IMG/VR virus record: IMGVR_UViG_3300049988_000118
Location: 1-64,000 of that record
Direction: 5' to 3' (one strand)
From: a virus
Lineage: Duplodnaviria; Caudoviricetes
Length of the DNA: 64,000 nt
Shown here piece by piece: positions 24,103 through 41,821 of the stretch (position 1 is the first letter of the stretch; each line of letters opens with the position of its first letter). Below the pieces are notes generated by a model. The model worked only from the letters and a program-made list of their open reading frames with translations, had not been told where the DNA came from and did no database searches. Made by a program: the position numbers and the translations under genes.

Positions 24103-24116
24103 AAATCGGAGGGCCT

Positions 24117-24934: not shown

Positions 24935-24937
24935 CCC

Positions 24938-25444: not shown

Positions 25445-25557
25445 TGGCTCGCGCACGTCAGCGGGCAGGAGAATGGCCCGCCGGAGCTGGCGATAGGTTT
25501 TAGCCCCGGCAGGTAGCGGGTGCGGGGGAAAGCACTCTTGCGGTGATTCCGAGACAG

Positions 25558-25992
25558 CTAGACGGCCGTACCGTCGAACCACGCCAGGACGCGTCCTTCC
25601 AGCAACCCGCGGAAGAGTTCGTAATCACTTGAGGCATATTTCGGCCCGCGACCGGAGGATCTTCCGTTGATCCATGGGTCTTCAGTGCCAATACTGTTTT
25701 CCCACAATCCAAATGCGAAGGCGGTCTGCTTGCAATTTGGGTCGGTCAACGTAACCGTTACGGTAATGCAGCCGCTTACGCCCTCGGCGCGGGCACTCGT
25801 ATATTTCAGATTGCTCGTCTCTGTCGGGTCGCTCGCCGAGATAGCATCAGCCATAGCATTCAGATCATTGAAGATAAAATGATACTTCTGCATTATATGA
25901 GCTTCGAGGCCGGCGCGAGCGACTGGCTCGAATCTGTTAATGTACCGCGCAATACTTGTTCGAAACTCTGAGTAATCCCGCTCGTTAGCCAT
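25558..25992 (-). CDS. Hypothetical cargo protein (low GC)
   Basis: Antisense, AT-richer than its flanks; AAGGAG RBS before MANER. Confidence 0.6.
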   Translation of the reverse strand: MANERDYSEFRTSIARYINRFEPVARAGLEAHIMQKYHFIFNDLNAMADAISASDPTETSNLKYTSARAEGVSGCITVTVTLTDPNCKQTAFAFGLWENSIGTEDPWINGRSSGRGPKYASSDYELFRGLLEGRVLAWFDGTAV

Positions 25993-26058
25993 ACTCACTC
26001 CTTCGGCGCCGGCACCCATACCGCGCTCTGCTTCCCATTCATATCGGAGCATCTCAGC

Positions 26059-26457
26059 ATGCCGAAGTCGAGACGCCGCCCGCAAGCGGCCGATTCCGCG
26101 CGCCTGCCCGTCGTCCCCGAGGACTTCGAGGCGGTGACTGAGGCGGATCGCCGGTTCTTCCTACGGTATCCGCAGCGGTCCTATCGGGTTCGGCATACAA
26201 GCCGGGCAGAGATAGACCAGGGCGCACGCGCCGGCAGTGCGTTCGAGGCGCCTTACGCCAAGTTCCGCTGGTTCACCGCGATCCGACAGGTGGCGCCGGG
26301 GTGTCGGCTGCGTGTGTATCTCCAGGCGCCCGCGCTGTGCGAGACGGACATACCGGAAGCACTGGCGGCCGATATCTACCATCGGTTCGAGGGGCAAAGC
26401 GCTCGCGACACGACAATTCTTATGATGGATGCCCTGAGAAAGGCGGGCGCCCTATGA
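26059..26457 (+). CDS. Hypothetical protein upstream of satellite primase
   Basis: 132-aa ORF, ATGA-coupled to the primase. Confidence 0.6.
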   Translation: MPKSRRRPQAADSARLPVVPEDFEAVTEADRRFFLRYPQRSYRVRHTSRAEIDQGARAGSAFEAPYAKFRWFTAIRQVAPGCRLRVYLQAPALCETDIPEALAADIYHRFEGQSARDTTILMMDALRKAGAL

Positions 26458-28751
26458 CGACCGCCGCCGCGGGTGAGCGCCCGCCGAAACCCGCCTATCA
26501 GCCCTTCACCGGCCTGCCGGACTTGCCGGCGCTGTGCGAGATGCGCGCCCGGCCTCAGTGGCTTGCCTGGGACTACGTGTGGCGCCCGGAAAAGGCGAAG
26601 TGGGACAAGCCCCCAATGAACGCCCGGACGGGCGGGGCCGGCTCGTCAACCGACGCCTCGACGTGGTCCACCTATGACCAGGCCGCGGCGCGTGCCTCTC
26701 GTGAGGGGCTGCCAGGCGTCGGCTACGTCCTGTCGCCGGAGGTCGAGGACAGCGGTGTCGACCTCGACAAGTGCCGCGATCCCGAGACGGGTATACTTCA
26801 GGCATGGGCGCAGGTGGCCGTCGATTTCGCCGAGACCTACACCGAGGTGTCGCCGTCCGGTCGCGGGCTGCGCTTCTTCGTCAAGGGGTTAGTCGACGGT
26901 CGCAAGATCGATGCGGCCCAAGTGGAGATCTACACCAAGGGCCGATACCTGACCGTCACCGGGCAGCATATCCCTGGCACGCCCACGGAGATTCGGGAGG
27001 CGCCCCGGCTCATCGCCTACCTTCAGGAGCGCGCCGACCAGTTCCGAGAGGTCGAGCGTGCCGCCGCTGATCGCGCCCGAGAGAACGAGCGCAAGAAGGC
27101 CGAGAAGCATGCCGCCCGCGAGCCCCGCCCTGAGCCGGGCCCGACAGTCAGCGAGCGGGCCTCGGCGAGCGCTCGGCAGCGTGGTCCGCGCGAGGGCGGC
27201 GACTTCTGGCGAACCGTCAACGACCGCGCCCTTGCGAACCTTGGCGCATGGGTCCCGAGCGTGTTCCCCGGCGCCCGTTGGCAGGCTGGCACAGGCGCCT
27301 ACCGCGTTGAGCAAAGCGCGCTTGGCGAGGGCTACGAGGAAGACCTGTCCCTGCACCCGGACGGCATTCGGGACTTTGGCAGCGGTGACATGGGAGACTC
27401 GCGCGACGGCGCGCGGACGCCGATCGACGTGGTGGAAGCCTACCTGCCGGCGAGCGACGCCGCGGCGGCGGCCATGTGGCTGTGCGATCGGCTCGGCATC
27501 CGGCCCGAGGACATCGGGTGGCGTGGCGGGCGTAACGAGGGTGCGGAGCGCCCGCGGTACGAGGGGCCCCAATCCGATCCGGGCCCCACCGCCGAGTCGC
27601 CGCCGGCATTCCGGGCGCGTCCGTTCGTGTGGAAGGACCCGCACACCCTGCCGATGCGCGAATGGCTTCTCGGCCGGCACCTGATCCGAAAATACACGAG
27701 CGCCACCGTCTCGCCGGGTGGCCTGGGCAAGTCGTCCATCATCATCGTGGACGCGCTGGCCCTCGTGACGGGTCGCAACCTCATCGGACACCAGCCGCAT
27801 GGACGTCACCGGGCGATGATCTGGAACGGCGAAGACCCGATGGACGAATTGCAGAAGCGCATCACGGCGGCCTGCCTCTATTTCGAGATCGACCGGACCG
27901 AGATCGAGGGGCGCTTGTTCGTCAACTCCGGACGCGACGACCCGATCACGGTGGCGAGAATGCACAGGGGTGACGTGGTGATTGCCGTGCCGGTGGTGGA
28001 CGCTCTTAAGGCGACCATCTTGGCGAACGAGATCGACGTCGTGTTCGTGGACCCGTTCGTGTCCTGCCATGAGGTGACGGAGAACGACAACAACGCCATT
28101 GATCGTGTGGCGAAGCTGTGGGGCCGGATCGCAGGCGAAACGAATTGCAGCATCGAGCTCGTCCACCATTCGCGGAAAACCGGCGGCGCCGAGATCACCG
28201 TCGAGGACGCGCGCGGCGCCGTGGCTTTGCTCGCCGCGGTTCGCTCGGCCCGGACCCTCAACGGCATGCAAAGGGACGAGGCTGAGAAGTGGGGTATTAC
28301 GGATCGCGGGCTGTATTTCCGAGTGGACAACGGCAAGGCAAATCTCGCCCCGCCGCCGTCTGAAGGCTCGGCGTGGTTCAAGAAGCAATCCGTTTCCCTC
28401 GGCAACGGCGGCAGCGTTGGGAGCATCGTGCTCGACGGTGACAGCGTTGGCGTGGTGGCAGCGTGGGAGCCGCCGAACCCAATGGATGGCGTGTCAGTCG
28501 ATGATCTGAGAAAAGCTCAGGCAGCGACAAGGGAAGGCCGCTGGCGCGAGAACTCACAGGCTCGCGACTGGATCGGCAAGCCGATCGCCTACGCCCTCAG
28601 GCTCGACGCAGACAACAAGGCCGACCGCGCCCGCATCAAAGGGATGCTCGCCGTCTGGATGAAGACTGGCATGTTCGTGGCCGTCACCGGCAAGGACGAC
28701 AAGGCGATGGACCGGACCTTCATTGAGGTTGGCGAGAGCGCAGTCGACTGA
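26454..28751 (+). CDS. Satellite primase-polymerase fused to AAA_25 (RepA/DnaB-like) helicase
   Basis: AEP motifs (DLDKC, EVSPSGRGLR, YLTVTG); Walker A SPGGLGKS, VFVDP, LVHHSRK. Confidence 0.88.
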   Translation: MTTAAAGERPPKPAYQPFTGLPDLPALCEMRARPQWLAWDYVWRPEKAKWDKPPMNARTGGAGSSTDASTWSTYDQAAARASREGLPGVGYVLSPEVEDSGVDLDKCRDPETGILQAWAQVAVDFAETYTEVSPSGRGLRFFVKGLVDGRKIDAAQVEIYTKGRYLTVTGQHIPGTPTEIREAPRLIAYLQERADQFREVERAAADRARENERKKAEKHAAREPRPEPGPTVSERASASARQRGPREGGDFWRTVNDRALANLGAWVPSVFPGARWQAGTGAYRVEQSALGEGYEEDLSLHPDGIRDFGSGDMGDSRDGARTPIDVVEAYLPASDAAAAAMWLCDRLGIRPEDIGWRGGRNEGAERPRYEGPQSDPGPTAESPPAFRARPFVWKDPHTLPMREWLLGRHLIRKYTSATVSPGGLGKSSIIIVDALALVTGRNLIGHQPHGRHRAMIWNGEDPMDELQKRITAACLYFEIDRTEIEGRLFVNSGRDDPITVARMHRGDVVIAVPVVDALKATILANEIDVVFVDPFVSCHEVTENDNNAIDRVAKLWGRIAGETNCSIELVHHSRKTGGAEITVEDARGAVALLAAVRSARTLNGMQRDEAEKWGITDRGLYFRVDNGKANLAPPPSEGSAWFKKQSVSLGNGGSVGSIVLDGDSVGVVAAWEPPNPMDGVSVDDLRKAQAATREGRWRENSQARDWIGKPIAYALRLDADNKADRARIKGMLAVWMKTGMFVAVTGKDDKAMDRTFIEVGESAVD

Positions 28752-28753
28752 GC

Positions 28754-28879
28754 TTCCACACCCGAGGTTCGGGCCTTCGCGCGTCCACACCCCACCCCAC
28801 ACCCCTATAGGGGTGGTGGTGTGGAATGGAGTTTCCACACTTCCACACCATTCCACACCACGCCTCGCAAGGTGTGGGA
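28754..28879. other. Putative satellite replication origin (TTCCACAC iterons + 14-bp palindrome)
   Basis: About 8 CCACAC/GTGTGG copies and the perfect palindrome ACCCCTATAGGGGT (28801-28814) directly after the primase stop. Confidence 0.65.
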
Positions 28880-28996
28880 GGCGACGACACGGCATGCTGT
28901 CACGATGGCCCTAATGCACGTGGTCGGGGACGATGCGGCTTGATGCATCCCGGGCGACCTGCGGTGTCACCCGGGATACCTGGTTCGTGAGCGGCG

Positions 28997-29365
28997 CTAG
29001 ACCCGATTGAACTCGCGTGCGTGCAAGTTGCTACCCGCGCGCACCATCGTCACGTTGAGCCGCTTGAAGCACGCCAGGAAGTCGGCGAGCGACAGGGGAA
29101 CGTCGACAGCGACCAGATCGATCGGCCCGTCCTGAGGCATGGCCTTCGTGGCCTCGTCGTAGCTGTTGCCCAGGGCATAGTGGGCCGTCAGCTTAGTGGA
29201 CCCGTCTACCTCGCTCTGCCAGAGGTCGAAGGCCACGAGGAAGCGGCCGGCAGGGGCAAGCCCGCGGGCAGCGAGCGTCGCCCCCAAGTCATCGACGGCG
29301 GCATTGTCGGCCGCGGCCGAGCCCTCCCAATCGCCGTACTGCGTCTCAGCCTGCAAGCGCTCCAT
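28997..29365 (-). CDS. Hypothetical cargo protein
   Basis: Antisense ORF with GGAG RBS; acidic, globular-looking. Confidence 0.55.
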   Translation of the reverse strand: MERLQAETQYGDWEGSAAADNAAVDDLGATLAARGLAPAGRFLVAFDLWQSEVDGSTKLTAHYALGNSYDEATKAMPQDGPIDLVAVDVPLSLADFLACFKRLNVTMVRAGSNLHAREFNRV

Positions 29366-29453
29366 GACCATGCTCCGTACAACCGTGGGCGGACGGCATA
29401 CGACCAAGCGGAGGCCGGGCCTAGGGGCCAAGCGGCGATCGTCACGGAGACCC

Positions 29454-29574
29454 GCACGTTCCTCGGTGGGTAGGCCCTCCGACCCCGCCCCGCATGCTGC
29501 GCCTCACTACCGCAGCGCACAATGGGTCCTCCGGAGACACCCCACCCCTCTGCGGGCAGAGTTGCTCCCGACTT
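29454..29574 (+). repeat. Satellite copy of the prophage cos region (121 bp, 100% identical to 19844-19964)
   Basis: Base-by-base identity at offset 9610; GGGTCCT at 29524-29530, dyad at 29548-29561; upstream of the satellite terS. Confidence 0.9.
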
Positions 29575-29656
29575 TCGGCTCTCTGCAAGTTTGCCAAAAA
29601 TAGGGGGGGCCGCTTCTTTTCGGTCCCTCGAAGCCTCGCTCCCGATGGAGAAACCG

Positions 29657-30175
29657 ATGAACGAGACCGCTTCGAACGCCGAGATGATGGAGCTGTTCGG
29701 GGTCTCAGACCGGACCGTCGCGAAGCACGCCGCCAGCGGGATATTCGTGCGTGTTGGCCGCGGCCAGTACGACGTGAAGGCCTCGATCCGCACCTACGCT
29801 GAGCACCTCCGCAGCGCCGCATCCGGGCGGCCCAGCACCAACGAAGAGCTGCGAGCCGAGAAGATTCGACTGACCGCCGCCCAAGCTGACCGCGCAGAGA
29901 TGGACCGGGACGCCGAGGCCGAGGTGATGGTCAACGTGAAGGAATTCGACGACGCGTGGGGCCATGAAATCGTCAAGCTTCGGCAGGGGTTTCTCGGCTT
30001 GGCAAATAAGATCGCGGAGGCTCACCCCCACTTCACGCGCCACGAGATCCACACCATCGACGAAGTGATCCGCGCGATGATGGAGCGGGTTGCCGACGAT
30101 GCCGATACACGCCTGGAAATCGCTCAGGCCAAAGAAGACAAGGGCGGAAAGTCGCGGCGCCGGTCCCGCCGCTGA
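29657..30175 (+). CDS. terS: Satellite terminase small subunit (Nu1-like)
   Basis: wHTH (MMELFGVSDRTVAKHAASG...GQYD), ELRAEKIRLTAAQADRAEM coil; C-terminus aligns with prophage TerS. Confidence 0.88.
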   Translation: MNETASNAEMMELFGVSDRTVAKHAASGIFVRVGRGQYDVKASIRTYAEHLRSAASGRPSTNEELRAEKIRLTAAQADRAEMDRDAEAEVMVNVKEFDDAWGHEIVKLRQGFLGLANKIAEAHPHFTRHEIHTIDEVIRAMMERVADDADTRLEIAQAKEDKGGKSRRRSRR

Positions 30176-30276
30176 ACGCGTAATTCGATTTAATGGTTGG
30201 TTTTGGTTGGTTTTCCCCGGTCCAAAGTTGGTTTTCTCTCGTTGAATTAGGCCCTCGTCCGCCGGACACTTCCGGC

Positions 30277-30624
30277 ATGACAACCGCCAGCTTCCCCCGC
30301 TTCAGCACAACGCTGGACCACGAGACGGCCCGCGCCGTCACCCTCGCCGCCGCCGAACGGATGCAGAGTCGCGCCGACTTCATTCGTGACGCGGTGGCCC
30401 ACGAACTGAGCGTCCGACAGGCCGCCGCCGACGCCGTGCGATCCGAGGTCGAGCGCCAGGGAGCCGCCGCCCGCCGCCTCACCGCCGCACTGGATCGGGG
30501 GCCGGGTGCAACCTCCCGTCTCACCGCCTCGCGCGTCGCCGCGCTCGCCCGGCCGGCCGCGCACACCATCCCCAACATCTCCACCCTCGACGCGGCCGAA
30601 GCCGCCGGAAAGGCATGCCCATGA
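30277..30624 (+). CDS. Ribbon-helix-helix (CopG-like) protein
   Basis: RFSTTLDHETARAVTLAAAERMQSRADFIRDAV fits the RHH pattern. Confidence 0.6.
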   Translation: MTTASFPRFSTTLDHETARAVTLAAAERMQSRADFIRDAVAHELSVRQAAADAVRSEVERQGAAARRLTAALDRGPGATSRLTASRVAALARPAAHTIPNISTLDAAEAAGKACP

Positions 30625-31706
30625 AATCGCCGACGAAGCTGCTCAAGGCCACCGCCACGGCGTTCGGCCTTGCCCGTAAGGCCACCGACGCCGAGGTCAT
30701 CGAGGCTGCAATCGCGGAGGCACGCACGGCCATTGCGGAGGGCGAGCGCGACGGGGCCGAGGCCCAAGCGCGCTACGACGAATCCCTGCTCGCCGATGAC
30801 GGCGACCCGGCCTTGATGCTCAACGCGATCCAGGCCGCCAAGATCAAGCGGGACCGCGGCGAGGCCCAGGTGGCCACCCTCACCGTGCGCCTGAACGATG
30901 TGCGGGAGGCCAGCGAGCAAGAACGCCGCGGCGCGATCTATCGGGATGCGGAGGCAAAAGCCGAAGCCGCCCGCGTTGCCCTGGTTCAGGAATACCCCGC
31001 CATCGCCCGACAGATGCATGGGCTACTCCGGCTTCTGGCCGAAGCCGAGATCAGGGTAGCGCAGGCGAACGCGGACCTACCGCACGGGGCCGCGCCCATC
31101 GCTTCGCCCGAGTGGCAGGTTCGGTATCCCGGGGCCAACCTGCCGCCGCTGCCGGCCCCAACGATGGTGAAGCTTTGGGCGCCCATGGGTGGAAGCGAGC
31201 CCGTGCCGGAGGAAGACCAGCAACGGGTTCGCCCGATGCCCGGTCGAGCGGAGTGGGTCGGCGCCCTCCGGCGTGATGACGGCTCCACGCTGGAGTGTCA
31301 TCGCCGTACCTTTCGGAAGTCGCTGGAATACGAGAAGCCCCACGGGGATTGGGGCACCAATCTGGCCGGGTCCGTGTGCCTGCCGGCCCTGTATCCCTTC
31401 ACCCCGCCCGTGTGGCCGCAGAACCTCATCAACGGCAAGACATTCGACCGATCTGCTGATGTTGCGCTGTCGACCTTGGATGATGTTGAGCCCCTGAGCG
31501 CGGCAGTCTGGCGACGAGCGGAGGCGATTTTGAAGGTCGTCACCCGCTTCCGGGAGGAGGGCCGCCCCCTCAACGTAGTGGACGACGGAGCACCGCGCGT
31601 ACCGCGCCACCAGCCTGTCACGGATCTCGCCCTTCGCCACCAGCCTGTCACGGATCTCGCCCTTTACGACGAGGATGACGGCGAAGCGGAGGGCGAGGCA
31701 GCATGA
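30621..31706 (+). CDS. Helical coiled-coil protein of unknown function
   Basis: Ala/Glu-rich heptads in the N-terminal half; coupled to its neighbours. Confidence 0.65.
   Translation: MKSPTKLLKATATAFGLARKATDAEVIEAAIAEARTAIAEGERDGAEAQARYDESLLADDGDPALMLNAIQAAKIKRDRGEAQVATLTVRLNDVREASEQERRGAIYRDAEAKAEAARVALVQEYPAIARQMHGLLRLLAEAEIRVAQANADLPHGAAPIASPEWQVRYPGANLPPLPAPTMVKLWAPMGGSEPVPEEDQQRVRPMPGRAEWVGALRRDDGSTLECHRRTFRKSLEYEKPHGDWGTNLAGSVCLPALYPFTPPVWPQNLINGKTFDRSADVALSTLDDVEPLSAAVWRRAEAILKVVTRFREEGRPLNVVDDGAPRVPRHQPVTDLALRHQPVTDLALYDEDDGEAEGEAA
31605..31664 (+). repeat. In-frame 30-bp tandem duplication (RHQPVTDLAL x2)
   Basis: CGCCACCAGCCTGTCACGGATCTCGCCCTT twice. Confidence 0.9.
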
Positions 31707-31966
31707 TGCGCGTCGTGCCGAAAGTCGATGGCGCCGAAGACGAACGGCGGGCGGCCAAGCGCCAACGGCTCACCGAAACCCTGGCCCTGCCGGAAGCGCA
31801 GGGCAGGGGCAACCTCCTCCCCTTCGCCCTGGCGTGCCGTTTCGATCTTCCCATGGCCCGCGTGAAGCAAGCCCTGGTCGACGCACCCGAGATGACCGAC
31901 CCGAACGAAGTTGCCGAGTGGGCGGAGGCATACCCCGTCCGCTCAAAACTGGAGATCGTGAAATGA
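31703..31966 (+). CDS. Hypothetical protein
   Basis: 87-aa coupled ORF. Confidence 0.55.
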   Translation: MMRVVPKVDGAEDERRAAKRQRLTETLALPEAQGRGNLLPFALACRFDLPMARVKQALVDAPEMTDPNEVAEWAEAYPVRSKLEIVK

Positions 31967-33219
31967 ACGACTACGATGGCCGCCGCCTGATCTGCGAAGG
32001 TGCCTTGGTCCTCTATGGTGACGTGGGCGAGGCCGGATGGGCGGACGTCGATGGCTTCACCGCCTCCGATGTGCTGTTCGCGCTCGCGGAGATCGGCGCA
32101 GACCGTGACGTGACGGTGCGGATCAACTCTGGCGGCGGCAATGCCTTCGAGGGCCTCGCCATCCACGCGATCCTCTCGGCGCACCGCGGCAAGATCACCA
32201 CCGTAGTCGAGGGCATCGCCGCGTCCGCCGCCTCCATCATCGCGATGGCGGGGAAGGACCGGATCGTCGCGCCCGGGTCGCTCATGATGATCCACGACCC
32301 GTCGGGCCTGACGGTCGGCACGGCGGACGATCACGACGACACCGCCGCCATGCTGCGCACCCTGTCGGATGCGCTTGCGACCGTCTACGCGACCGCCACC
32401 GGCCGAGCGAAGGCCGTCATCCTGGAGGAGATGAAGGCCGAGACGTGGCTCGACGCCGACGAATCCCTTGCCCGGCGGTACGCCACGGCGATCGGAACCG
32501 CCCCCGCCTCGACCGCCATGCTCCCGTTTCCGTTCGGAGCCTATGCGAAGGCACCCGCCCACCTCGTCGCCCTTGCGGAAACGAAGGGGTGGAGCGCCCG
32601 CCAGTTCACCGCCTCGCACGCCCTGGGCAAGTCGCGTTCCGAGCGCCACGCCGCTGCACCGCGCTCCTTCGATAAGGCGGCCACCGCGTCGGCGCCTGAC
32701 GCCATCGCCCAGACGTGCGCTCTTGCCGGGTGCCCGGAGAGGGCCGCCGAGTTCATTGCGGCTGGGGCGTCGTCGGCCGACGTAGCGAAGCAGCTGCTAG
32801 CGGAAGCGGTGACCGGCACGGCCACCCAGGGCGCGAGCCAGAACCGTCTGTCTCGCGCCGATTCGGCGTCGGTCGCGACCCTGTGTCTCGACGCGAGCAT
32901 TCCCGAGATGACGCCGACCATCCTCGCCCGAGCCACCACCGTGGATCAGGCCAAGGCGCTGATCCAGACCGGCACCGAAATGAAGGACGTCGTGACCCTG
33001 GCGCGCCGGCACTGCCCGAGCGTGCCCGAGGATTTGGCGGTCACAGCGTTCGCCGCCGGAAAGACGGTCAAGCAGGTCCGCGACGAGGCCGTGAACCTGA
33101 TGGCGGAAGAGGGCGACCGAACCGAAGTCCAGGGGAGCCGCCACCCCGCCGCGATCAATTCCGGCCCCGGGGCGGCGAAGCGGAACATGCTGGCCCAACT
33201 CGCGCGGGCCACCCGCTGA
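31963..33219 (+). CDS. Satellite ClpP-type head maturation protease fused to scaffold domain
   Basis: RINSGGG, GIAASAASIIAMAG (Ser), MIHDP (His), ETW; paralog of 42203..43411. Confidence 0.9.
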   Translation: MNDYDGRRLICEGALVLYGDVGEAGWADVDGFTASDVLFALAEIGADRDVTVRINSGGGNAFEGLAIHAILSAHRGKITTVVEGIAASAASIIAMAGKDRIVAPGSLMMIHDPSGLTVGTADDHDDTAAMLRTLSDALATVYATATGRAKAVILEEMKAETWLDADESLARRYATAIGTAPASTAMLPFPFGAYAKAPAHLVALAETKGWSARQFTASHALGKSRSERHAAAPRSFDKAATASAPDAIAQTCALAGCPERAAEFIAAGASSADVAKQLLAEAVTGTATQGASQNRLSRADSASVATLCLDASIPEMTPTILARATTVDQAKALIQTGTEMKDVVTLARRHCPSVPEDLAVTAFAAGKTVKQVRDEAVNLMAEEGDRTEVQGSRHPAAINSGPGAAKRNMLAQLARATR

Positions 33220-33410
33220 TGGCCCTGGCAACCTCCGCCCTCCGCGTCCGCATCGTGGACACCCCGTCGGCCGGCGCTCTCCTCGACCTCGCCGACCGCT
33301 TGCGCCGACTCGCCCCGTCGCCCCGCGATCCGGAGCGCTTCCACGTCGAGAAGTCCGAGATTGAGGGCGAACTGCGCCGGCTCGCCCTGCCGCCCGCCCG
33401 GAGATCCTAA
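33219..33410 (+). CDS. Small hypothetical protein
   Basis: TGATG overlap; 63 aa. Confidence 0.55.
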   Translation: MALATSALRVRIVDTPSAGALLDLADRLRRLAPSPRDPERFHVEKSEIEGELRRLALPPARRS

Positions 33411-33413
33411 ACA

Positions 33414-33851
33414 ATGCCCAAAAGCTCCACTCGGAAGCGCGCCCCTGCCGCGCGGTCCCCCGCCCCGGACCTCCCGCCGCCGCGCTTCGTCATGCCGGTG
33501 CCGGATCATACCGTTCCGCTGATCCACCCGGTCGAGTACGCCGGCCGAACCTTCGCCAGCATCACCCGTCGACGCCCGTCTAGCGCCGTGCTGGGCCGGT
33601 GGTTCGAGCAGTTCACCGAGGGCGCGGCGGTCCCGGGCGACACGAATCTCAACGTGCCGATTTTCGTCGACGAGGCCGGCGACCTCGTACCGGATGCGGT
33701 GCTCGGCTTTCTCGACGACGATGACCGGCAGGTCGTGTTCGAGGATGCTGACCGTTTTTTTCCCAAGCGGCTCGCGGTTGCCCTGGAAGCTCTGACGCAG
33801 GACTCAGCCCCTTCGTCTGGCGAACCTGCCGAGCCGACATCATCCGCTTGA
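33414..33851 (+). CDS. Satellite tail assembly chaperone (TAC)
   Basis: Aligns with prophage TAC (L..P.E..G......RR; PIF.D..G..PD.....LDDDD; F.P.R); lies directly before a TMP. Confidence 0.8.
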   Translation: MPKSSTRKRAPAARSPAPDLPPPRFVMPVPDHTVPLIHPVEYAGRTFASITRRRPSSAVLGRWFEQFTEGAAVPGDTNLNVPIFVDEAGDLVPDAVLGFLDDDDRQVVFEDADRFFPKRLAVALEALTQDSAPSSGEPAEPTSSA

Positions 33852-33943
33852 TAGGGGGCTCGCGGGCTGAGCTCGACGCCATGACCTGGGGCGAGTTCAC
33901 CCGCGAGTGGTTCGAAGCCAAACGCGTTTCTGAGGGCCGCTGA
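33755..33943 (+). other. -1 programmed frameshift (T TTT TTT) and gpE'/gpT-like extension of satellite TAC
   Basis: The -1 frame is open from the slippery site to TGA 33941-33943 and encodes RADIIRLIGGSRAELDAMTWGEFTREW. Confidence 0.8.
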
Positions 33944-33944
33944 G

Positions 33945-36635
33945 ATGTCGACACGCACCGCAACCCTGATCGCCAACTTGGTCGATCAGGTCTCAGGTCC
34001 GGCCAAGGGCATGGCCGGCGCCCTGAAAAGCACCGCATCCGCCCTCGATGCACTGAAGGCCAAGGCCGGCAAGATCGACGCCTTCAAGCAGGCGAGCAAG
34101 TCGCTGGACGACGCCGCGCAGAAGTTCAGGCTGGCGCAGCAGAACGTGCGCAAGATCAAGGCCGAGATGGAGGCCGGCGGCGACGGCGCCAAAAAGCTCG
34201 GGAGCGCGCTGAAGGGCGCCGAGCGCAACGCCGATGCGGCGCGGGCCGCGTTCAAGAATCAGGGGCAGGAGGTCCGCGCGTTGCGCACCGCCCTGGAGCA
34301 GGCCGGCGTGCCGCTCAACGCGCTCGCCGCGCACGAGCGCCAGTTGCAGACCCAGATCAACCACACCACCGAGGCGCTCAAGCGACGGAAGAAGGCGCTT
34401 GCGGATGTTGGCGCCGGGGCGCCGGCGAGCCGGATGGGGCCAGCCGCAGGCGGGCACGGGCCTCAAGCAGGGCGCGGGGGCGGTGGCACGGGCGCCGCCG
34501 GGAGCGCCGTAGTGGGCGCCGGCGTGGCGCGCTTCGGCGTGGCAGCGGCCGGAATCGGTGGGGGTGCCTACATCATCGGCGATCAGATCCGCCGGGCTGC
34601 GAAGTCGTCGATAGATTTCGAGCGCAGCATGATCGAGGTCGGCAAGGCCACCGACGCATCAGGGGCCGATCTCGAAAAATACTCCGAGGGCATCCTGGCG
34701 CTGGCCCGCGCCACCGGCAAGACGAAGGAAGACCTCGCCTCGATGCTCTCCTCGGCGGGCTTTGCCGGCCGCCCGAAGGAGGAGCTAATGAACTTCACCG
34801 AGTACGCGGCGAAAGCGACCGTGGCTTGGGGCACGAGCGCCGAAGACACCGGCCAGGCGTTGGCCGAGATCGGCAACATCTACGACGCGAATCAGAAGCG
34901 CATCGAGGAGATCGGCGACGCGATCAACACGATGGCGGACAGCTCGGCATCGAAGGAATCCGACCTACTCGACTTCATGCGTCGGGCGGGTGCCTCGTCG
35001 AAGCAGGCCGGCATCTCAGCCGAGCATATGCTGGCGTTCGGCGCCTCGATGAAGGAAGTGGGCGTCCGGACCGACGTGGCCGCCACCGGCTTCGAGGCAC
35101 TCCTGAACGTGATGAAGCTCGGCGAGGAGTTTTCGAAGAAAGCAGGCGAAGGTCTGAAGGATCTCGGCGTCAACTCCACCAAGATGCGCAAGGCGTTCGT
35201 CGCCAAGCCGGTCGAGACGATGCTTGGCCTGCTGGAAAAGATCAACAAGGTCGCGGACCCGCTCAAGAAAGCGGAGATTATGACCAACCTTTTTGGCAAG
35301 GAATATCAGGACGACATCGCCAAGATGCTCAACGCCTTGCCGAAGGTGAACAAGTACATCGGCATCATGAGCGATCAGGCGAAGATTGCCGCCGGTGGCG
35401 TCCGGTTCCAGTTCGGTCAGAACCTCGACAAGGACGTGTCGAAGATCGACCGGGCCACGCAATCCATCGACGTTCTCTACAAGCGCATCGGCGACCCGAT
35501 CAAGATCCAGATCGGCGGCATCTCCGAGCAGGTCAATACGCTCGTCGACAGCCTGGAAAAGGGCGACACGATCCTTCAGCGCCTGGTGAAGCGCCTCAAC
35601 GGCGGCGAAGCTGGCAAGCCGATCGAGCTGCCCGAAATGAATGGCGAAGGCGGCCTGGAAAAATGGTTCGAGGAAAAGCTGCCCTGGCTGAGCGGCAAGA
35701 AGTGGAACGACGAGGTCGACAAGCGGATCGGCAAGACCGGCGCTGACACGGACCGGATGAACCGCGAGGACGCCGACGGGCGGCGCGCCGCGGCCGAGCG
35801 GGAGGTGCTCGACCGCCCGGCCGACATCGAGACGAAGATCCAGCGCCAGCGCCGCGCACAGGATCAGGCCCGGCGGGAAGCGGTCGGGGCTACGGGGATG
35901 CGGCGCTCGCTGGCGGTGGAGCAGATCGGCAAGTCCGACGCCGAGGTGAAGCGCTTGGAGGGCGAGCTTGCCAAGGCTTGGGAGGCGATCGGAGCCCTTC
36001 GCGCTCAGCACAAGCGGGACAAGGGGGCGTTCAGCGTCGACGGTCCGGCTGCGAAGGACGTGGAGACCATCGGCCCGGGCCGCTTCGGGCTTGGCCTACA
36101 CGGCACGGACGTGCTGCCCTCGCGCCGGGTGCCGCTACCGCCGCCGCGACCCGCAGGGCTGACGCCCGGCGCAGAAATCACCATGCCGGAGATCAAGGTC
36201 GAGGTGGACACCTCCGGCTTCGATGAGGCCAGCCGCAAGGCCGATGAACTCGGTGCGCGGACCATCGCGCCGAAGGGCGACGGCGCCGGCTTGGCCCCCA
36301 TCGGGACAGCGGCCGACGAGGCCAAGGCGAAGCTCTCTGAAATCAATGCCACCACCGTCACACCGAAGGGAGATGCCGCAGGGCTCGCGCCGCTCGGGAC
36401 GGCCGCCGACGAAGCCAAGGCAAAGCTTTCGGCCCTCGCCGGGGTGAGCGTCGCGCCGACCGTCGACGCCTCATCCATCGCGGCGGCAGAAACCGCAGTA
36501 GATCGCCTCCTGGCGAAAATCGCCCGGGTCGGCCCAGCCCTGAAAGGCGCCAACGGGGCTGTTGCCTCGGGTGTCGTCCGTTCCGGCAACGTCGCCCAGC
36601 GCCTCCAGAACACTTTCACCGACAAGGGGATGTGA
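33945..36635 (+). CDS. Satellite tail tape measure protein (TP901-type core)
   Basis: AAKSSIDFERSMIEVGK...LALARATG core; N- and C-termini match the prophage TMP. Confidence 0.9.
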   Translation: MSTRTATLIANLVDQVSGPAKGMAGALKSTASALDALKAKAGKIDAFKQASKSLDDAAQKFRLAQQNVRKIKAEMEAGGDGAKKLGSALKGAERNADAARAAFKNQGQEVRALRTALEQAGVPLNALAAHERQLQTQINHTTEALKRRKKALADVGAGAPASRMGPAAGGHGPQAGRGGGGTGAAGSAVVGAGVARFGVAAAGIGGGAYIIGDQIRRAAKSSIDFERSMIEVGKATDASGADLEKYSEGILALARATGKTKEDLASMLSSAGFAGRPKEELMNFTEYAAKATVAWGTSAEDTGQALAEIGNIYDANQKRIEEIGDAINTMADSSASKESDLLDFMRRAGASSKQAGISAEHMLAFGASMKEVGVRTDVAATGFEALLNVMKLGEEFSKKAGEGLKDLGVNSTKMRKAFVAKPVETMLGLLEKINKVADPLKKAEIMTNLFGKEYQDDIAKMLNALPKVNKYIGIMSDQAKIAAGGVRFQFGQNLDKDVSKIDRATQSIDVLYKRIGDPIKIQIGGISEQVNTLVDSLEKGDTILQRLVKRLNGGEAGKPIELPEMNGEGGLEKWFEEKLPWLSGKKWNDEVDKRIGKTGADTDRMNREDADGRRAAAEREVLDRPADIETKIQRQRRAQDQARREAVGATGMRRSLAVEQIGKSDAEVKRLEGELAKAWEAIGALRAQHKRDKGAFSVDGPAAKDVETIGPGRFGLGLHGTDVLPSRRVPLPPPRPAGLTPGAEITMPEIKVEVDTSGFDEASRKADELGARTIAPKGDGAGLAPIGTAADEAKAKLSEINATTVTPKGDAAGLAPLGTAADEAKAKLSALAGVSVAPTVDASSIAAAETAVDRLLAKIARVGPALKGANGAVASGVVRSGNVAQRLQNTFTDKGM

Positions 36636-36693
36636 CGACGGCAGTCGGCCGCGCAGAGACGGTCAGTAAATGGCTTGTGACGATCTGGGCAGC

Positions 36694-37038
36694 CTACCGC
36701 GCGTCCACGATGCGACAGGACGCGGCGCCGAGAGTTTTCCCGTCCGCCTCGGCGATGCCGATGAAGTTCCGGCCTGTGACGGTAGCGCCCGGTTTGATGT
36801 TGCGGATAACCGAGGCCGCTTCACCCACGGGAGACCCGCCCGGACTTGCTACGGAGCAACTGACCTCGGCGACCTCCACCCGCGCCGAGCCGGCATTCCT
36901 CACCTGAATCACGGTCTCGACGGTCTCGCCGATGGCGCGCGGGCGTCCGGCCGTGACCGAGAGGTCATCCGCCATCCCCGCCGCGTGTGCGGCGTACGAT
37001 GACACGATCAGAGCGAGGGCGAGCAGGGCAGGGCGCAT
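36694..37038 (-). CDS. Secreted Ig-like hypothetical protein (FxLYD-like)
   Basis: Signal peptide MRPALLALALIVSSYAAHA; beta-rich with Cys pair. Confidence 0.6.
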   Translation of the reverse strand: MRPALLALALIVSSYAAHAAGMADDLSVTAGRPRAIGETVETVIQVRNAGSARVEVAEVSCSVASPGGSPVGEAASVIRNIKPGATVTGRNFIGIAEADGKTLGAASCRIVDAR

Positions 37039-37081
37039 GCCGGCAAGATAGCCGCCGGGGTGCAGTTGTCGAGACTAGCCC

Positions 37082-37234
37082 TCAACCGCGTACGGCATGC
37101 TGTTCACCCGCCGGGGCAGGCCGCTCGGCATGTGGATGCTTCCGGTTGAATCGGTACTTCAGCAGCGCGAAAAAACCGCCGCCTCCGACCACTGCCAAGC
37201 CGAGAGCGGACCATAGGAGCAGGGTAGGTGTCAC
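37082..37234 (-). CDS. Small single-TM protein (50 aa)
   Basis: GTG start overlapping the upstream GGAG; LLLWSALGLAVVGGGGFFALLKYR. Confidence 0.5.
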   Translation of the reverse strand: MTPTLLLWSALGLAVVGGGGFFALLKYRFNRKHPHAERPAPAGEQHAVRG

Positions 37235-37237
37235 GGA

Positions 37238-37609
37238 TCACTCCTCTGATTGCATCACAAGGAAATTTAGAACGTACGGGAAGATATGGAAGCCCAAAGA
37301 AATAACACACCATTGAACCGCGTTTCCGTCCAGAACCGCATCCGCGTCCCGAACGAACGGCACGATCGCCGCTGCCCCTAGAATGCCGGCCGCGAGAGTG
37401 TTGCAGAGCGCGTTGAAGTGCTTGAGGCACTCATTGATGCGCTTGGCGTCAAGCTTCCGCAATGCTGGGTTATCAGACGATGGCGGCGGTTTTCCTGAAC
37501 CAAAACTTGGAGAATTTATTTTTCGAGCCAGTGCCTCTGCTTCACCTTCAGCGAAGCTGTCAATCGATCGAAGGGGTGTTGTGCTTTTCTTAATGGCGCC
37601 AGTCATCAA
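37238..37609 (-). CDS. Two-TM membrane protein (cargo)
   Basis: Hydrophobic segments TLAAGILGAAAIVPFV and WCVISLGFHIFPYVLNFLV. Confidence 0.6.
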   Translation of the reverse strand: MMTGAIKKSTTPLRSIDSFAEGEAEALARKINSPSFGSGKPPPSSDNPALRKLDAKRINECLKHFNALCNTLAAGILGAAAIVPFVRDADAVLDGNAVQWCVISLGFHIFPYVLNFLVMQSEE

Positions 37610-37974
37610 CGTGACTGCCTTAAGATATTATAATTCATCAAATAAATCTCTCCCTTCGACGATCTAAAGGACATGATCACGAAGGATAGATAAAACTTGT
37701 GCGTTTCATCTTGAGCAAAGCTTTGGGTAATTCGCGCTCCGGTCGAGATTATATTGTCTCGACTTCGACGATGCACAAGAGATAGTATTTGATCATCGTC
37801 CAATTGAATTGTGGTTTCGGTATCCGTGCTTTCGTCGATACTCAACTTAAATCTGAATCGATATTCAGGATCGTCGTCGAAGGGCATCATAACGATGGTT
37901 TCTTCGGCGCCAAGAATAATTGAGCCTGAATGAATCAGCTCTCTTTTTCCGACTATGGCAGTGGGCCGAGTCAT
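37606..37974 (-). CDS. Hypothetical cargo protein (low GC)
   Basis: AT-rich ORF coupled to 37238..37609. Confidence 0.55.
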   Translation of the reverse strand: MTRPTAIVGKRELIHSGSIILGAEETIVMMPFDDDPEYRFRFKLSIDESTDTETTIQLDDDQILSLVHRRSRDNIISTGARITQSFAQDETHKFYLSFVIMSFRSSKGEIYLMNYNILRQSR

Positions 37975-38445
37975 ATGCAGATCCCAAGCGCGATCGGTGG
38001 GCAAGCCGCACACGGCTCGATCCAAGCGCTGTGCCTCTACCCTACGCGCACGACGAAACCCCCATCGCCTTGCAGGGCGTGGGGTTGTCGTGTCATGATG
38101 AACGTAGAGCCTGAGAACTCTCGCGACGGTCCCTTGCAGGGGATAGCGTCGCATCCTGTGACGGAAGCCCAACACCTTGCAGGGTGATGTGCCCCGTAAT
38201 GAACGTGCTCACCTCCCGGTGAGCGCGACCGGCTCACTATGCCGGGAGTGCGGCGACACGGTCAAGCAGAAATGCTCGACTGCGATACAAGAGCCCTTCG
38301 GGGTAAAGGTCGCCGCGCACGTTCTCACAGGCGTGTTCTCAGCCTCCCGGCGCCAGCACCGCATGCTGGCGTGGCCGAAAGCCCCTGAGAAGGCTCGAGG
38401 CCCCGGCCCTGAGAAGCCGGTTCGTACCTGTGAGAACCGAGATCC

Positions 38446-39135
38446 ATGACCACCACACAGACCCGCACGGCGCCTTCCCGGCGCGTGCCGCCGGCTGCCC
38501 GTCAGCCCGGCCCGGTGACGCTCGCCATACGCGCGCTGCGCCCGAACGAAGCCCCCACCTGGGAACAGCGTCAACGGGAGATCGATGCGGAGGAGCGGGC
38601 CACCCTGCGCGCCCTTCGCAAGCGCGTCGCTCAAGCCGTGTCGGACGGCATCGATTTCCTTGACGCAACCGGCAGGGATCCGGACCTCGATGCGGACTAC
38701 ACGACCACTGAGCGCGCCCCGGACGGCGGCCTACACACCGTCGGCCGCAGCACCGATGACGAGCCGAGCCTATGTGGCATCGGCGGCCACTTCGCGTTCG
38801 GGCATCAGCACGAGTTCCCGCAGACGGGTGGCGGCTGCGGTGAAAACGCCCACGACCTTGAGGGTGAGGACGAGCACGGGAGCGACTGCGACCGTGGGGA
38901 GGATTCGCTAGGCTCGCTCGGGGGCACCGCAAATGCTGTCGGCCACTCCCAACTGAATTGGGCGGGCGGCGGTGCGAACGATCTGGAGGCCGTGGACGAG
39001 GACGGCGGCGATATCCAAGACGCCCCTCACGATGGTGACGAGCGCGAGGACGGCGACGACAACGGCATCGGCGACCTTGAAGGCTTGCACGAACAGTTCG
39101 CCGGCACCCGGTACGCCTTCGCTGGTGCCGTATGA
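38446..39135 (+). CDS. Acidic Asp/Gly-rich hypothetical protein
   Basis: 229-aa ORF with DEPSL and DDNGIGD acidic motifs. Confidence 0.65.
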   Translation: MTTTQTRTAPSRRVPPAARQPGPVTLAIRALRPNEAPTWEQRQREIDAEERATLRALRKRVAQAVSDGIDFLDATGRDPDLDADYTTTERAPDGGLHTVGRSTDDEPSLCGIGGHFAFGHQHEFPQTGGGCGENAHDLEGEDEHGSDCDRGEDSLGSLGGTANAVGHSQLNWAGGGANDLEAVDEDGGDIQDAPHDGDEREDGDDNGIGDLEGLHEQFAGTRYAFAGAV

Positions 39136-39593
39136 GCGCCCCCGCATCGCGCCGGGGATTCCTCTCCGGTCTCGCCGTCCTGCCGTCTCTCACGGTAGTG
39201 GCAACTGCCGCTGCAAGCCCCGACGCGCCGTTACTTGATTTGGCGCCGCGCCTTGTCCCGCTGCTGGACCGATACGACCGGCTTTGGGCGGCGCAGGGTG
39301 GCACCTACGAGGCCGGCATCGCTGAAGTGCAGCGAGCAACGAGGAGAGGGGCATCTTGGGGGGAGGCACAATCGGCTTCTCCCTTGTGGCGGAAGTACAT
39401 GAGCGCCAGGGCGCCGGCCGATCGCATAGGGGACATAATCGACCCTCTGATTGAACCTTTATGGGATCATCGCGCGGTCACCGTGCCGGGCCTGTTACTC
39501 AAAGCCAGGATCGCCGCGACCTTCGATAGCTGGGAAGGCGACGTCTTCGATGACGTTCGCGCCATGGTGAAGGCAGGTACTCTCCTGACTTAA
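39132..39593 (+). CDS. Hypothetical protein with Tat-like N-terminus
   Basis: SRRGFL motif followed by a hydrophobic stretch. Confidence 0.6.
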   Translation: MSAPASRRGFLSGLAVLPSLTVVATAAASPDAPLLDLAPRLVPLLDRYDRLWAAQGGTYEAGIAEVQRATRRGASWGEAQSASPLWRKYMSARAPADRIGDIIDPLIEPLWDHRAVTVPGLLLKARIAATFDSWEGDVFDDVRAMVKAGTLLT

Positions 39594-39748
39594 CCCCCGG
39601 CCCGGCCGCCCGCACGGACGCCTCAGATCTGAGGGCGCGGTGCCGTACCGCGCCAATCCGGAGCCCGGCCGGGCCTCACGAACGCCGCTCGCGCAATCCC
39701 GCGCGGGCGGCATTCGCCGTACCGCACGGCGCAATTCGTGAGGATGCC

Positions 39749-40537
39749 ATGACCACGACACCCACGGTCCACATCACCGACGGCAAACCCATGGCGGACA
39801 GCCGTGAGATCGCCGCCACTTTCGGCCGGCAGCACAAAGACGTGCTCCGAGCCTATCGAGAGCTCGCATGCTCCGCGGATTTCAGGCAGCGCAATTTTGC
39901 GCCGTTTCATTCCAAGGACTTAAGCGGGTCCACCCTCTCCCACGTCCTGATGACCAAGAACGGGTTCGCCTTCCTCGTCCTCGGCTTCACCGGCGCGCCG
40001 GCCGCCGTCTTCAAGGAGGCGTACATCGAGCGGTTCGACGCGATGGAGGAGGCGCTACGGGGCAAGGCGATCCTGGCCGTTCCGACCACCTTCGCCGAGG
40101 CCCTACAGCTTGCCGCCGACAACCAACGGCAGGTTGAAGCGCAGGCCGCACAGATCGCCGTCCTGGCCCCACGCAGCGAGGCCCTGGCGACCATCGCCGA
40201 CGGGGAGGGGACGTTCTGCATCCGCGACGCGGCCAAGATGCTTCAGGTCACGGAAAGCGGCCTGACGGCCTACCTGTCGGGCAACGACTGGATCTATCGA
40301 CGCGAGCCCGGCGGGCCATGGGTGGCGACCGCCCGGCGGTTCGGACAGGGCTGGATCACCACGAAGGTGATTCCGGTCGAGGTCGGCAACGGCAAGGTCT
40401 GGAACAAGCCGCAGGCCCGCATCACGAGCGCCGGCTTGACGGTCCTGGCGATGCGCTTGGGCAAGCCCGTGCCGGCGGGCCTCGCAGCATCGGCCCCGCT
40501 CATCGAACACGCGGCTCGGCCGCAGGGAGGACACTGA
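39749..40537 (+). CDS. rha: Rha-family regulator fused to antirepressor KilAC/ANT domain
   Basis: DSREIAATFGRQHKDVLR, MTKNGFAFLVLGFTG, YIERFDAME; C-terminal FCIRDAAKMLQ...WIYRR. Confidence 0.88.
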   Translation: MTTTPTVHITDGKPMADSREIAATFGRQHKDVLRAYRELACSADFRQRNFAPFHSKDLSGSTLSHVLMTKNGFAFLVLGFTGAPAAVFKEAYIERFDAMEEALRGKAILAVPTTFAEALQLAADNQRQVEAQAAQIAVLAPRSEALATIADGEGTFCIRDAAKMLQVTESGLTAYLSGNDWIYRREPGGPWVATARRFGQGWITTKVIPVEVGNGKVWNKPQARITSAGLTVLAMRLGKPVPAGLAASAPLIEHAARPQGGH

Positions 40538-40538
40538 G

Positions 40539-41741
40539 ATGGCGAGCGTCAGGAAGCTCAAGAAGGATGACCCCGCGTCTCCATGGATCGTTGAATACAC
40601 GGACCCGTCGACGGGCAAGCGGGTGCGCAAGACCCCTAAGTCGGGACTGAAAAAGGACGCCGATGCCCTGCGTCGGAAGATCGAGGCGGAGATCGATGGA
40701 GGCATTCACACCGCCCCTTCGACCTCGCCCACGATCGCTGACCTGGGCGACACCTTCGTTCGGAACGCGGCGGAGCGCCTATCGGACGGCCGGATCGGGC
40801 GAAGCCGTTATGCCATCATCGTCTACACGGTGGAGAATTGCCTAAAACCGCACCTTGGTCGCATGAAGCTTTGTGGCCTGAAGCGCGAGGACGTGGAGGG
40901 CTGGTATAACTGGCTGCGCAAGGAAAAGAAGCTTGCCCCGGTCACGTCGAAAGGGCGGGTCATCATTTTCCAGATGATCGAGGACTTTGCGGTCCGCCGG
41001 TCATGGACGAAGCTGACGCCGGTGCGCGACTACCTCAAGGATCTCACCGGCATCCGGCAATCACGTGTGCGGACCTTCAGCGCGGAGCAGGCCGCGCAGG
41101 TGCTCGCGACTGCCGCCCATCGAGCCCCCGGCTTCAAGCTGCGGGCGCACGCCTACACCGAATGCATGGTTAACCTCGCGGCTTGCTGTGGCCTCCGGTA
41201 CGGGGAGATCCTGGGATTGTCCCTCGATGACGTGTTCTTCGATGACCGGCGCCTCTACATCCGGCACAGCCTCACGGACTGGGACGAGTTAAAGGGGCCG
41301 AAGACAGTCGCCGGCGTCCGCAACATTCCTTTGCCGCAGCACGTCGCTGACATGCTCACGGCCTGGATCGCCAACGGCTACGTGGCGAACGAGCGCCGGT
41401 TGCTGTTCCGGACATCATCGGGCGGCATCATCAGTGCCGCGAGCTTCCACAAGGCGACGTGGGGGCCGTTGCTGATCCGTGCAGGGCTCGGCGAAGGGAA
41501 GCGTTTCCACTTCCACGCCCTGCGCCATTTCGCGTCGAGCTGGATGATCGCGAACGGCCTGCCCGTGACCGACGTGGCGCGCCTCATGGGGCACAGCCAT
41601 TTCGACACGACGCTCCAGGTCTACGCGCACCCGGTCATCGCGAACCACCGGCACCAGGAGGCTTTCGACCGGATGGCGAGCAATCTGAAGCTGGAATTGC
41701 CTGCGCCAGGGGAGACCTCGCGCGACATGGCGCCGGCCTGA
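40539..41741 (+). CDS. int: Tyrosine recombinase/integrase of the satellite
   Basis: Catalytic residues GLRYGE (R), GPKT (K), HALRH, MGH, QVYAH (Y); ends 70 bp from attR. Confidence 0.95.
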   Translation: MASVRKLKKDDPASPWIVEYTDPSTGKRVRKTPKSGLKKDADALRRKIEAEIDGGIHTAPSTSPTIADLGDTFVRNAAERLSDGRIGRSRYAIIVYTVENCLKPHLGRMKLCGLKREDVEGWYNWLRKEKKLAPVTSKGRVIIFQMIEDFAVRRSWTKLTPVRDYLKDLTGIRQSRVRTFSAEQAAQVLATAAHRAPGFKLRAHAYTECMVNLAACCGLRYGEILGLSLDDVFFDDRRLYIRHSLTDWDELKGPKTVAGVRNIPLPQHVADMLTAWIANGYVANERRLLFRTSSGGIISAASFHKATWGPLLIRAGLGEGKRFHFHALRHFASSWMIANGLPVTDVARLMGHSHFDTTLQVYAHPVIANHRHQEAFDRMASNLKLELPAPGETSRDMAPA

Positions 41742-41811
41742 ACGCGACATAAATGCGGATGCGGCTGGACGCATCCAGCGTTTTCAATGACTTAGCACAT
41801 GGGTAAGAGTT

Positions 41812-41821
41812 AACATCAGAC
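41812..41821 (+). repeat. attR core AACATCAGAC
   Basis: Direct repeat with 23922-23931. Confidence 0.92.

Follow-up and report, generated by a model that had tools for sequence, protein, structure and literature searches.

Tail chaperone and tape measure genes of a putative phage satellite inserted in the portal gene of a prophage with a P2-type tail

Why would a mobile element that has no recognisable tube, sheath, or baseplate gene keep a pair of tail genes of its own? The question is raised by positions 33414–36635 of the DNA analysed here, called the window below (the first 64 kb of the IMG/VR virus contig IMGVR_UViG_3300049988_000118, 73,988 nt in full). A tail assembly chaperone gene and a tape measure protein (TMP) gene are located there within a 17.9-kb element (23932–41811), which splits the portal gene of a helper prophage and is predicted to be a phage satellite. 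The closest TMP relatives in the homolog search carried the name Methylobacterium. In our assessment, the satellite probably exploits helper parts to build hybrid tails with its own TMP.

Tail genes of the element and their helper counterparts

All helper open reading frames (ORFs) were compared with the element by tblastn, and matches were obtained only for the primase, the terminase/cos patch, the protease-scaffold, the chaperone extension, and the TMP ends. Genes of an autonomous virion (major capsid protein, portal, large terminase, tube, sheath, and baseplate) were not detected in 23932–41811 by tblastn or by PHROG and Pfam scans of the sizeable ORFs. The chaperone and the TMP were the only tail genes recognised in the satellite, and the helper retains an intact pair of its own. 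The description of the element in the initial annotation, tail-less apart from these two genes, holds as far as these tools see.

The satellite protein matches the TMP profiles PF10145 and PHROG 28 (Table 1). Satellite and helper TMPs (896 and 968 aa) shared their ends, with 15 of 22 residues identical at the N-terminus, 44% identity over the last 91 residues, and 13 of 16 residues identical at the very end, while core identity in 50-residue bins was 16–26%. This pattern of common ends and divergent cores had been noticed in the initial annotation, and it was reproduced here. At the nucleotide level, the last 51 nt of the satellite gene were 88% identical to the 3' end of the helper TMP gene, and matches of this kind between the two numbered only five, this patch included. 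The sister satellites (loci L006 and L008) differed at this end, where 13 of the 17 C-terminal residues of the window satellite equal those of the helper. Up to about residue 750, the satellite TMP was 84–100% identical to the sister proteins (in the L008 comparison, identity was down to 56% from residue ~750), and over the last ~100 residues 18–32%. Because identity to the sister satellites collapses there, the C-terminus has been exchanged.

The C-terminal tail was compared with the type of the gpU/gpD hub in five phages and four satellites. Phages L048 and L049, which were found by scanning IMG/VR with a back-translated motif of the TMP tail, both shared 16 of 17 tail residues with the helper, and their gpU and gpD were 88% and 80% (L048) and 87% and 95% (L049) identical to the helper proteins, at a TMP core identity of 28% and 25%, respectively. 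In phage L019, one of 17 tail residues matched (gpU 38%, gpD 42%, core 27%), and in phage L010 none of 17 when aligned from the end (gpU 65%, gpD 66%, core 27%). The window satellite would use the gpU and gpD of the helper, whose tail residues it matches, and sister satellites L006 and L020 shared 11 of 17 residues with the L010 type. Since L048 and L049 have the tail and the hub in common with the helper at a core identity of only 25–28%, the TMP tail tracks the gpU/gpD type and not the core type.

Cores and tails appear to recombine independently. Locus L024 was a reciprocal mosaic, with a helper-type chaperone (40%) and core (42%) and with C-terminal 60 residues almost identical to those of L008. 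Phage L010, with a complete tube-chaperone-TMP-gpU-gpX-gpD module, had a tube and sheath 85% and 86% identical to those of the helper, but its chaperone (61%) and TMP (65%) were of the satellite type; because L010 combines the two, a satellite-type cassette would be able to work on a helper-type tail chassis. Among phages with the same hub, the chaperone and TMP-core module is hypervariable. The chaperone type went with the TMP core type, which fits a chaperone that binds the core, as the lambda chaperone gpG binds the gpH tape measure.

The satellite chaperone ORF (33414–33851) contains seven T at 33755–33761 in the X XXY YYZ register. The −1 frame has 60 open codons and ends with a stop at 33941–33943, two bases short of the TMP ATG at 33945. 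The helper gene has T TTT TTG at 58738–58744, followed by a 58-codon −1 extension with its stop at 58918–58920 and the TMP ATG at 58924. Only six runs of six or more T were found on the plus strand of the window, two of them being these slip sites, and about one such run per 64 kb was expected at the window composition (66% G+C). Both slip sites, the open −1 frame to 33943, and the homology of the extensions had been reported in the initial annotation, and direct reading and recomputation confirmed them; the extensions align, with an invariant core RADI..-GG-RAEL-W-E-EW in seven elements. The heptamer was T TTT TTT also in L006, L008, and L010 and T TTT TTG also in L020.

The helper chaperone was matched by PF10109 (Phage_TAC_7, 34.3 bits vs. 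a cutoff of 25). The satellite protein had no Pfam or PHROG match, and it was tied to PF10109 only through the helper copy (32% identity, E 2e-16); its identity to the chaperones of sister satellites L006 and L008 was 84–90%. The order of the chaperone gene before the TMP gene was the same in ten related loci. On this gene layout, the satellite chaperone has a frameshift architecture of the P2 E/E+E' or lambda G/GT type, and it is predicted to be made in two forms. A stimulatory RNA fold 3' of the slip sites was no better than in shuffled sequences (z −1.0 to −1.8), and the folds of satellite and helper were unlike each other. A third chaperone type was observed in phage L048 (1197–1600), which has the helper-type gpU/gpD chassis; its slip site is C CCT TTC, and its −1 extension is unrelated.

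The cassette as a trait of a satellite family

The operon of small terminase, ~330-aa protein, chaperone, and TMP was shared by a dozen or more tail-less Methylobacterium elements whose replication modules differ. Among TMP homologs, tail-less contexts were found for P0001 (91% TMP identity; DnaB and DUF1376 replication module, integrase), P0002 (85%; VapE module, integrase), P0012 (54%; PrimPol and D5 module; the record, cut close to the end of the element, shows no integrase), and P0013 (57%; unassigned replication module, a small integrase island beside lon/clpX). Complete tail modules surrounded P0003 (65%, P2-like), P0010 (57%, P2-like), and P0014 (53%, Mu-like). P0001, P0002, and P0012 have a common gene order: an HTH_17 regulator, the small terminase, a small gene, the ~330-aa protein, one to three small genes, the chaperone, and the TMP. 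For P0013, the gene list alone was used.

The 363-aa protein of the window satellite had 35–38% identical homologs at the same position in L006, L008, and L020. Its family (~330 aa) comprised about 40 protein clusters, all source names given being Methylobacterium, and the gene was present in 19 of 146 Methylobacterium species genomes. Twenty-one loci with this signature gene were examined, 20 from species genomes and one on an IMG/VR contig (L022). Homologs of the sheath, tube, gpU, or gpD were found within 10 kb in none of the 21. A long TMP-like ORF was located 0.6–2.5 kb downstream in at least 10 of them, six of which had a T TTT TTY/G slip site and a −1 extension of 51–66 codons ending at the start of the long ORF. 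Among the six strongest loci, a TMP was present in five, the exception being L023.

The N-termini of the family TMPs were of at least three unrelated types (the window type, an L019-like P2 type, and a Mu-like type), and the cassette would therefore have been replaced repeatedly while its slot in the operon was kept. Among the three closest satellites, dN/dS was 0.11–0.15 for the TMP (at dS of about 0.4) and 0.20–0.41 for the chaperone. Selection on the cassette had been proposed in the initial annotation, and neither relaxed selection nor pseudogenisation was seen in these comparisons. The ratios indicate that the cassette is under purifying selection, as a conserved trait of the satellite family and not as debris. 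The TMPs of family satellites were 845, 848, 890, 896, 933, 954, 963, 1113, 1145, 1152, and 1325 aa long; those of the window type were 845–896 aa in satellites and 836–886 aa in phages.

The close TMP relatives came from metagenome assemblies. No close full-length relative was present in 401 family-level and 146 genus-level species genomes, a scan of genome contigs with the TMP alignment returned only seven loci, mostly distant core matches, and a peptide-pattern scan of IMG/VR with the TMP returned no relative. For the ~330-aa family, no protein was found in the JGI metagenome scan and one locus in the IMG/VR scan. Searching with the accessory region 36694–38684 gave partial matches only (68–95% identity, the longer ones 68–81%) and no near-identical sister. 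A conserved 95-aa protein of the sister satellites was considered as a relative of the protease-scaffold and was found to be unrelated.

Three further observations concern family members. A related tail-less element is present twice on contig G410:C3 (1–32990), as loci L030 and L031 at a distance of 19.4 kb, and each copy has two adjacent genes of the ~330-aa family, a frameshift-type chaperone, and a 1325-aa TMP-like ORF. In contig record 18 of the isolate-like run X3, a sister element corresponds to window positions 33174–38684. Its accessory region (36694–38684) is about 98.5% identical, and the part with the chaperone and TMP genes has diverged (core identity about 79%) and exceeds the window copy by about 1.6 kb. 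Apparently, the tail cassette was replaced and the backbone stayed nearly the same. The TMPs at L026:3942–7283 and L032:11327–13564 have transglycosylase-like or SLT domains, which the window TMP does not have.

Proposed hybrid tails and alternative explanations

The following course of events is proposed. Upon helper induction, the satellite chaperone would coat the satellite TMP, the last ~17 TMP residues would dock into the helper gpU/gpD hub, and helper tube and sheath would polymerise around the satellite TMP, giving helper-built tails that contain it. The satellite would not complement a helper defect, because the helper cassette is intact. Chimeric tails on helper baseplates had been put forward in the initial annotation, and this is still the best reading: the C-terminal tail co-varies with gpU/gpD and matches the resident helper, and the mechanism itself has been shown in the PLE satellites of Vibrio (Mathur, Boyd et al., Nature 2026, PMC12987554). 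By analogy with PLEs, the satellite TMP is inferred to be incorporated into particles.

PLEs carry genes for a TMP and a chaperone and, in some cases, for a hub protein. In PLE11 virions, the PLE TMP is present and that of the helper ICP1 is excluded, ICP1 TMP being blocked by the PLE11 protein Rta, and the tails are 10 nm shorter for a TMP difference of 95 aa; predicted tmp genes were also reported in unrelated satellites (PMC12987554). The window satellite resembles the Vibrio cholerae PLEs (PLE11, PLE4, and PLE1) in having its own TMP and chaperone and no tube, sheath, or fibres, in a TMP core only about 20–30% identical to that of the helper, in a TMP shorter than the helper's (by 72 aa here), and in a contractile helper tail. 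It differs in its alphaproteobacterial host, in its temperate helper prophage with a P2-type tail (ICP1 is lytic), in the lack of a recognised hub gene or Rta-like inhibitor, and in a TMP C-terminal tail that follows the helper hub type. Its chaperone has the conserved −1 frameshift, and none is mentioned for PLEs in the available parts of PMC12987554. Particle composition was demonstrated for PLEs and is predicted for the window satellite. It may thus work like a PLE, although it is not filed as a member, since host, helper type, and gene content differ.

The EPIP satellites of Mycolicibacterium aichiense encode a TMP and a small terminase as well, and their TMP has been linked to altered tail length (bioRxiv Dec 2025, PMC12822802). 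Unlike in the window satellite, the integrase of EPIPs is of the serine type, head-tail adaptor genes are present, and the helper tails are non-contractile and are made longer and variable. Hybrid tails as such are not a new idea but one published in 2025–26 for PLEs and EPIPs. This analysis adds a C-terminal docking tail that matches the helper and the natural occurrence of helper and satellite together on a single record. Predicted tmp genes also occur in cf-PICI-type islands outside Vibrio cholerae; cf-PICIs have their own capsid, portal, and connectors, none of which was found in 23932–41811, where a protease-scaffold, a small terminase, and a ~330-aa protein are present instead. In phages P2 (E, E+E', T) and lambda (G/GT, H), the chaperone likewise precedes the TMP, the slip site, T TTT TTG in P2, is of the same type, and the −1 extension ends just before the TMP. 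The gpE family of P2 is PF10109, which the helper chaperone matched and below whose detection the satellite chaperone falls; unlike in P2, the other genes of the FETUD tail operon are missing around the satellite pair. Phage P2 has an integrative satellite as well, P4, which has a primase and likewise exploits a P2-type tail of its helper. P4 is not known to encode a tail protein, redirects capsid size by Sid, and uses P2 tails unmodified.

Three possible benefits of a hybrid tail were ranked. Evading something that acts on the helper-type TMP core was placed before competitive takeover of baseplates, and a changed tail length was considered the least likely. For the factor that would be evaded, a tail-assembly inhibitor made by the satellite, or an exclusion or defence factor at DNA entry, is favoured; the block at entry is attractive because the attachment site lies in the helper portal gene. 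As an explanation in its own right, bypass at entry would mean that a different TMP core on a helper-matched docking tail lets the satellite inject into helper lysogens, past a block encoded by the prophage or the host. We consider this rather unlikely, although several points speak for it. With attB inside the helper portal gene, helper lysogens are the only cells that have the attachment site; the core is the divergent part of the TMP and the docking ends are kept; three unrelated chaperone/TMP core types (WH, L048, and L010) are found on the same gpU/gpD chassis, as diversifying pressure would give; and a reverse-strand, lower-GC cluster of three secreted proteins, including an SNase-like nuclease, adjoins the helper chaperone and TMP genes. 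The Ltp protein of TP-J34 is an exclusion protein that targets the TMP. Another precedent is HK97 gp15 (as cited in PMC11364771). However, no exclusion gene was identified in the helper, the sister satellites occupy chromosomal sites and not prophages, and the bypass is compatible with hybrid tails and not exclusive of them. Escape from an anti-TMP factor, as suggested in the initial annotation, is possible, but no such factor was found.

It is less likely again that the cassette serves interference only, in which case satellite TMP and chaperone would hijack or poison helper baseplates and lower the helper titre while being dispensable for satellite transfer. Interference with helper assembly is common among satellites (PMC11364771 and PMC12987554), and the cassette duplicates a helper function. 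The helper-matched ends, the full-length TMP under selection, and the working chaperone architecture would nevertheless predict functional tails, and in PLEs the loss of the satellite TMP lowers satellite transduction (PMC12987554). That a tail about 10 nm shorter is itself the selected trait is very improbable. The TMPs of the window pair do differ (896 vs. 968 aa), and PLE11 tails are measurably shorter (PMC12987554). The figure, which was given in the initial annotation, is arithmetic for one pair: the family satellites span 845–1325 aa and phage TMPs of the same types 836–968 aa, with no conserved direction, and TMPs of the satellite type have the same length range in phages and in satellites. 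Decay of a prophage, with the chaperone and TMP left over as functionless remains of a deleted tail operon, is effectively refuted. Every satellite morphogenesis gene has a diverged helper homolog, and L023 is a relative without the cassette, as decay would leave them. Against this stand the intact ORFs of 845–1325 aa and intact slip sites in a dozen elements at different genomic sites, the TMP dN/dS, an operon position that is constant even where the cassette type was replaced, and the precise element boundaries.

Some results weigh against the hybrid-tail reading. Locus L023 (G448:C11) keeps the gene order of L006 for the small terminase, the ~330-aa gene, and the 95-aa gene but lacks both chaperone and TMP, so that the cassette is not indispensable for the family. 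No candidate for an Rta-like inhibitor of the helper TMP was found among the satellite accessory ORFs by Pfam, PHROGs, or PADLOC. The sample in which tail and hub co-varied is small. Recruitment of the helper tube by the −1 extension is suggested by analogy with lambda gpGT only, and co-variation of the extension with the tube was not supported, since phage L048 has a 71% identical tube and yet a different extension. At the site of the cassette, L023 has a gene with a metallo-beta-lactamase fold, and this locus is either a cassette-less member or a truncated copy.

The first demonstration of tail rebuilding by a satellite dates from 2026 and concerns a single Vibrio system whose helper is lytic (PMC12987554), and the window would represent the published PLE mechanism in a new lineage. 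The record offers a natural temperate helper-satellite pair on 74 kb, from a genus that is non-pathogenic and tractable, together with relatives in which the chaperone/TMP cassette was replaced several times with its operon place kept. We hypothesise that the chaperone type is inherited together with the TMP core, and the final ~17 residues together with the gpU/gpD hub, which would explain how a baseplate accepts a foreign tape measure. The mosaic pattern bears on tail assembly in general and on the engineering of tails of chosen length or cargo. If bypass at entry were true, the gpU/gpD hub that a TMP can use would be set by a portable code in its last ~17 residues, and the core would be under an arms race.

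The inserted element and the helper prophage

Segment 23932–41811 is a discrete insertion, because it is flanked by 10-bp direct repeats, the portal frame is restored without it, and the uninterrupted site is found elsewhere. When 23931 was joined to 41822, the portal frame stayed open to about 42188. The empty site was present on contigs of two other studies, with the junctions 23921>41812 (10-nt overlap) and 23931>41829. According to PHROG and Pfam scans, the helper is a prophage that combines a head of the lambda type with a contractile tail of the P2 type; P2-type baseplate and fibre genes are also present. The features are listed in Table 1. In addition, the element encodes a ribbon-helix-helix protein, unassigned small ORFs, and a Rha/Ant-type regulator.

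Table 1. Positions of helper and satellite features in the window
Feature	Position	Strand	Remarks
Helper primase	12216–14618		
Helper small terminase	19884–20621		
Helper large terminase	20605–22506		
Helper portal	up to 23931		Lambda-type; element follows
attL core AACATCAGAC	23922–23931	+	Left end of element, within helper portal gene
Satellite primase	26301–28751		
Satellite small terminase	29522–30175	+	PHROG 57, E 2.4e-25; opens the morphogenesis operon that closes with the TMP
363-aa protein	30615–31706	+	Family signature gene
Satellite protease-scaffold	31963–33219	+	S49/ClpP-type; 45% identical to helper copy
Satellite tail assembly chaperone, zero frame	33414–33851	+	gpE-like, 145 aa
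Slippery heptamer T TTT TTT	33755–33761	+	
−1 frame extension (E' part)	33761–33943	+	60 aa; predicted fusion product 176 aa
Satellite TMP	33945–36635	+	896 aa; PF10145 at 2.6e-31, PHROG 28 at 7.5e-67
TMP 3' patch	36583–36633	+	Last 17 codons; matches helper TMP 3' end, 61778–61828
Satellite tyrosine integrase	40539–41741	+	PHROG 1, E 2.9e-55
attR, identical 10-mer AACATCAGAC	41812–41821		Beside integrase
Helper protease-scaffold	42203–43411		
Helper major capsid protein	43801–44847		
Helper sheath	55157–56416	+	
Helper tail tube	56464–56997	+	
Helper tail assembly chaperone	start 58367 or 58442	+	Zero frame to 58822; −1 extension to 58920
Helper TMP	58924–61830	+	968 aa, intact; PF10145 at 2.6e-10
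Helper gpU	61834–62280	+	PHROGs 76 and 52 cover the gpU and gpD pair
Helper gpD hub	62535–63578	+	

A 121-nt segment of the satellite (29454–29574) is an exact copy of helper positions 19844–19964, upstream of and overlapping the helper small-terminase start. It had been read as cos in the initial annotation and is, together with the helper-matched TMP tail, an indirect sign of mobilisation by the helper. No terminator-like sites were found on the plus strand between 29000 and 38600. The accessory ORFs at 24115–25444, 25558–26085, and 36632–39593 had no match in Pfam, PHROGs, or PADLOC.

A perfect 30-nt tandem duplication was observed at 31605–31664, near the 3' end of the 363-aa gene; contig X2 of another study has one copy fewer, which makes this an in-frame length polymorphism. 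Positions 38046–38440, which lie upstream of the ORF at 38446 and have no assigned gene, had matches of 68–81% identity in many Methylobacterium species genomes, and copies of a ~70-nt segment near 37004–37074 (74–95% identity) were found in dozens of genomes. The former may be a regulatory or RNA element that is conserved, and the latter a small repeat.

The helper contains two minus-strand stretches of lower G+C. The insert at 14615–16372, after the primase, has ~50% G+C vs. ~66% around it and two genes, which code for an HTH/metallopeptidase-like regulator (PHROG 2439) and a 172-aa protein (PHROG 11126). The cluster at 56998–58449, between the tube and chaperone genes, has three ORFs with signal-peptide-like N-termini: a 160-aa protein (57967–58449), a Cys-rich 61-aa protein (57672–57857), and an SNase-family nuclease (PF00565 at 8.9e-15, within 56998–57930). 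This secreted-protein cluster is possibly lysogenic-conversion or exclusion cargo.

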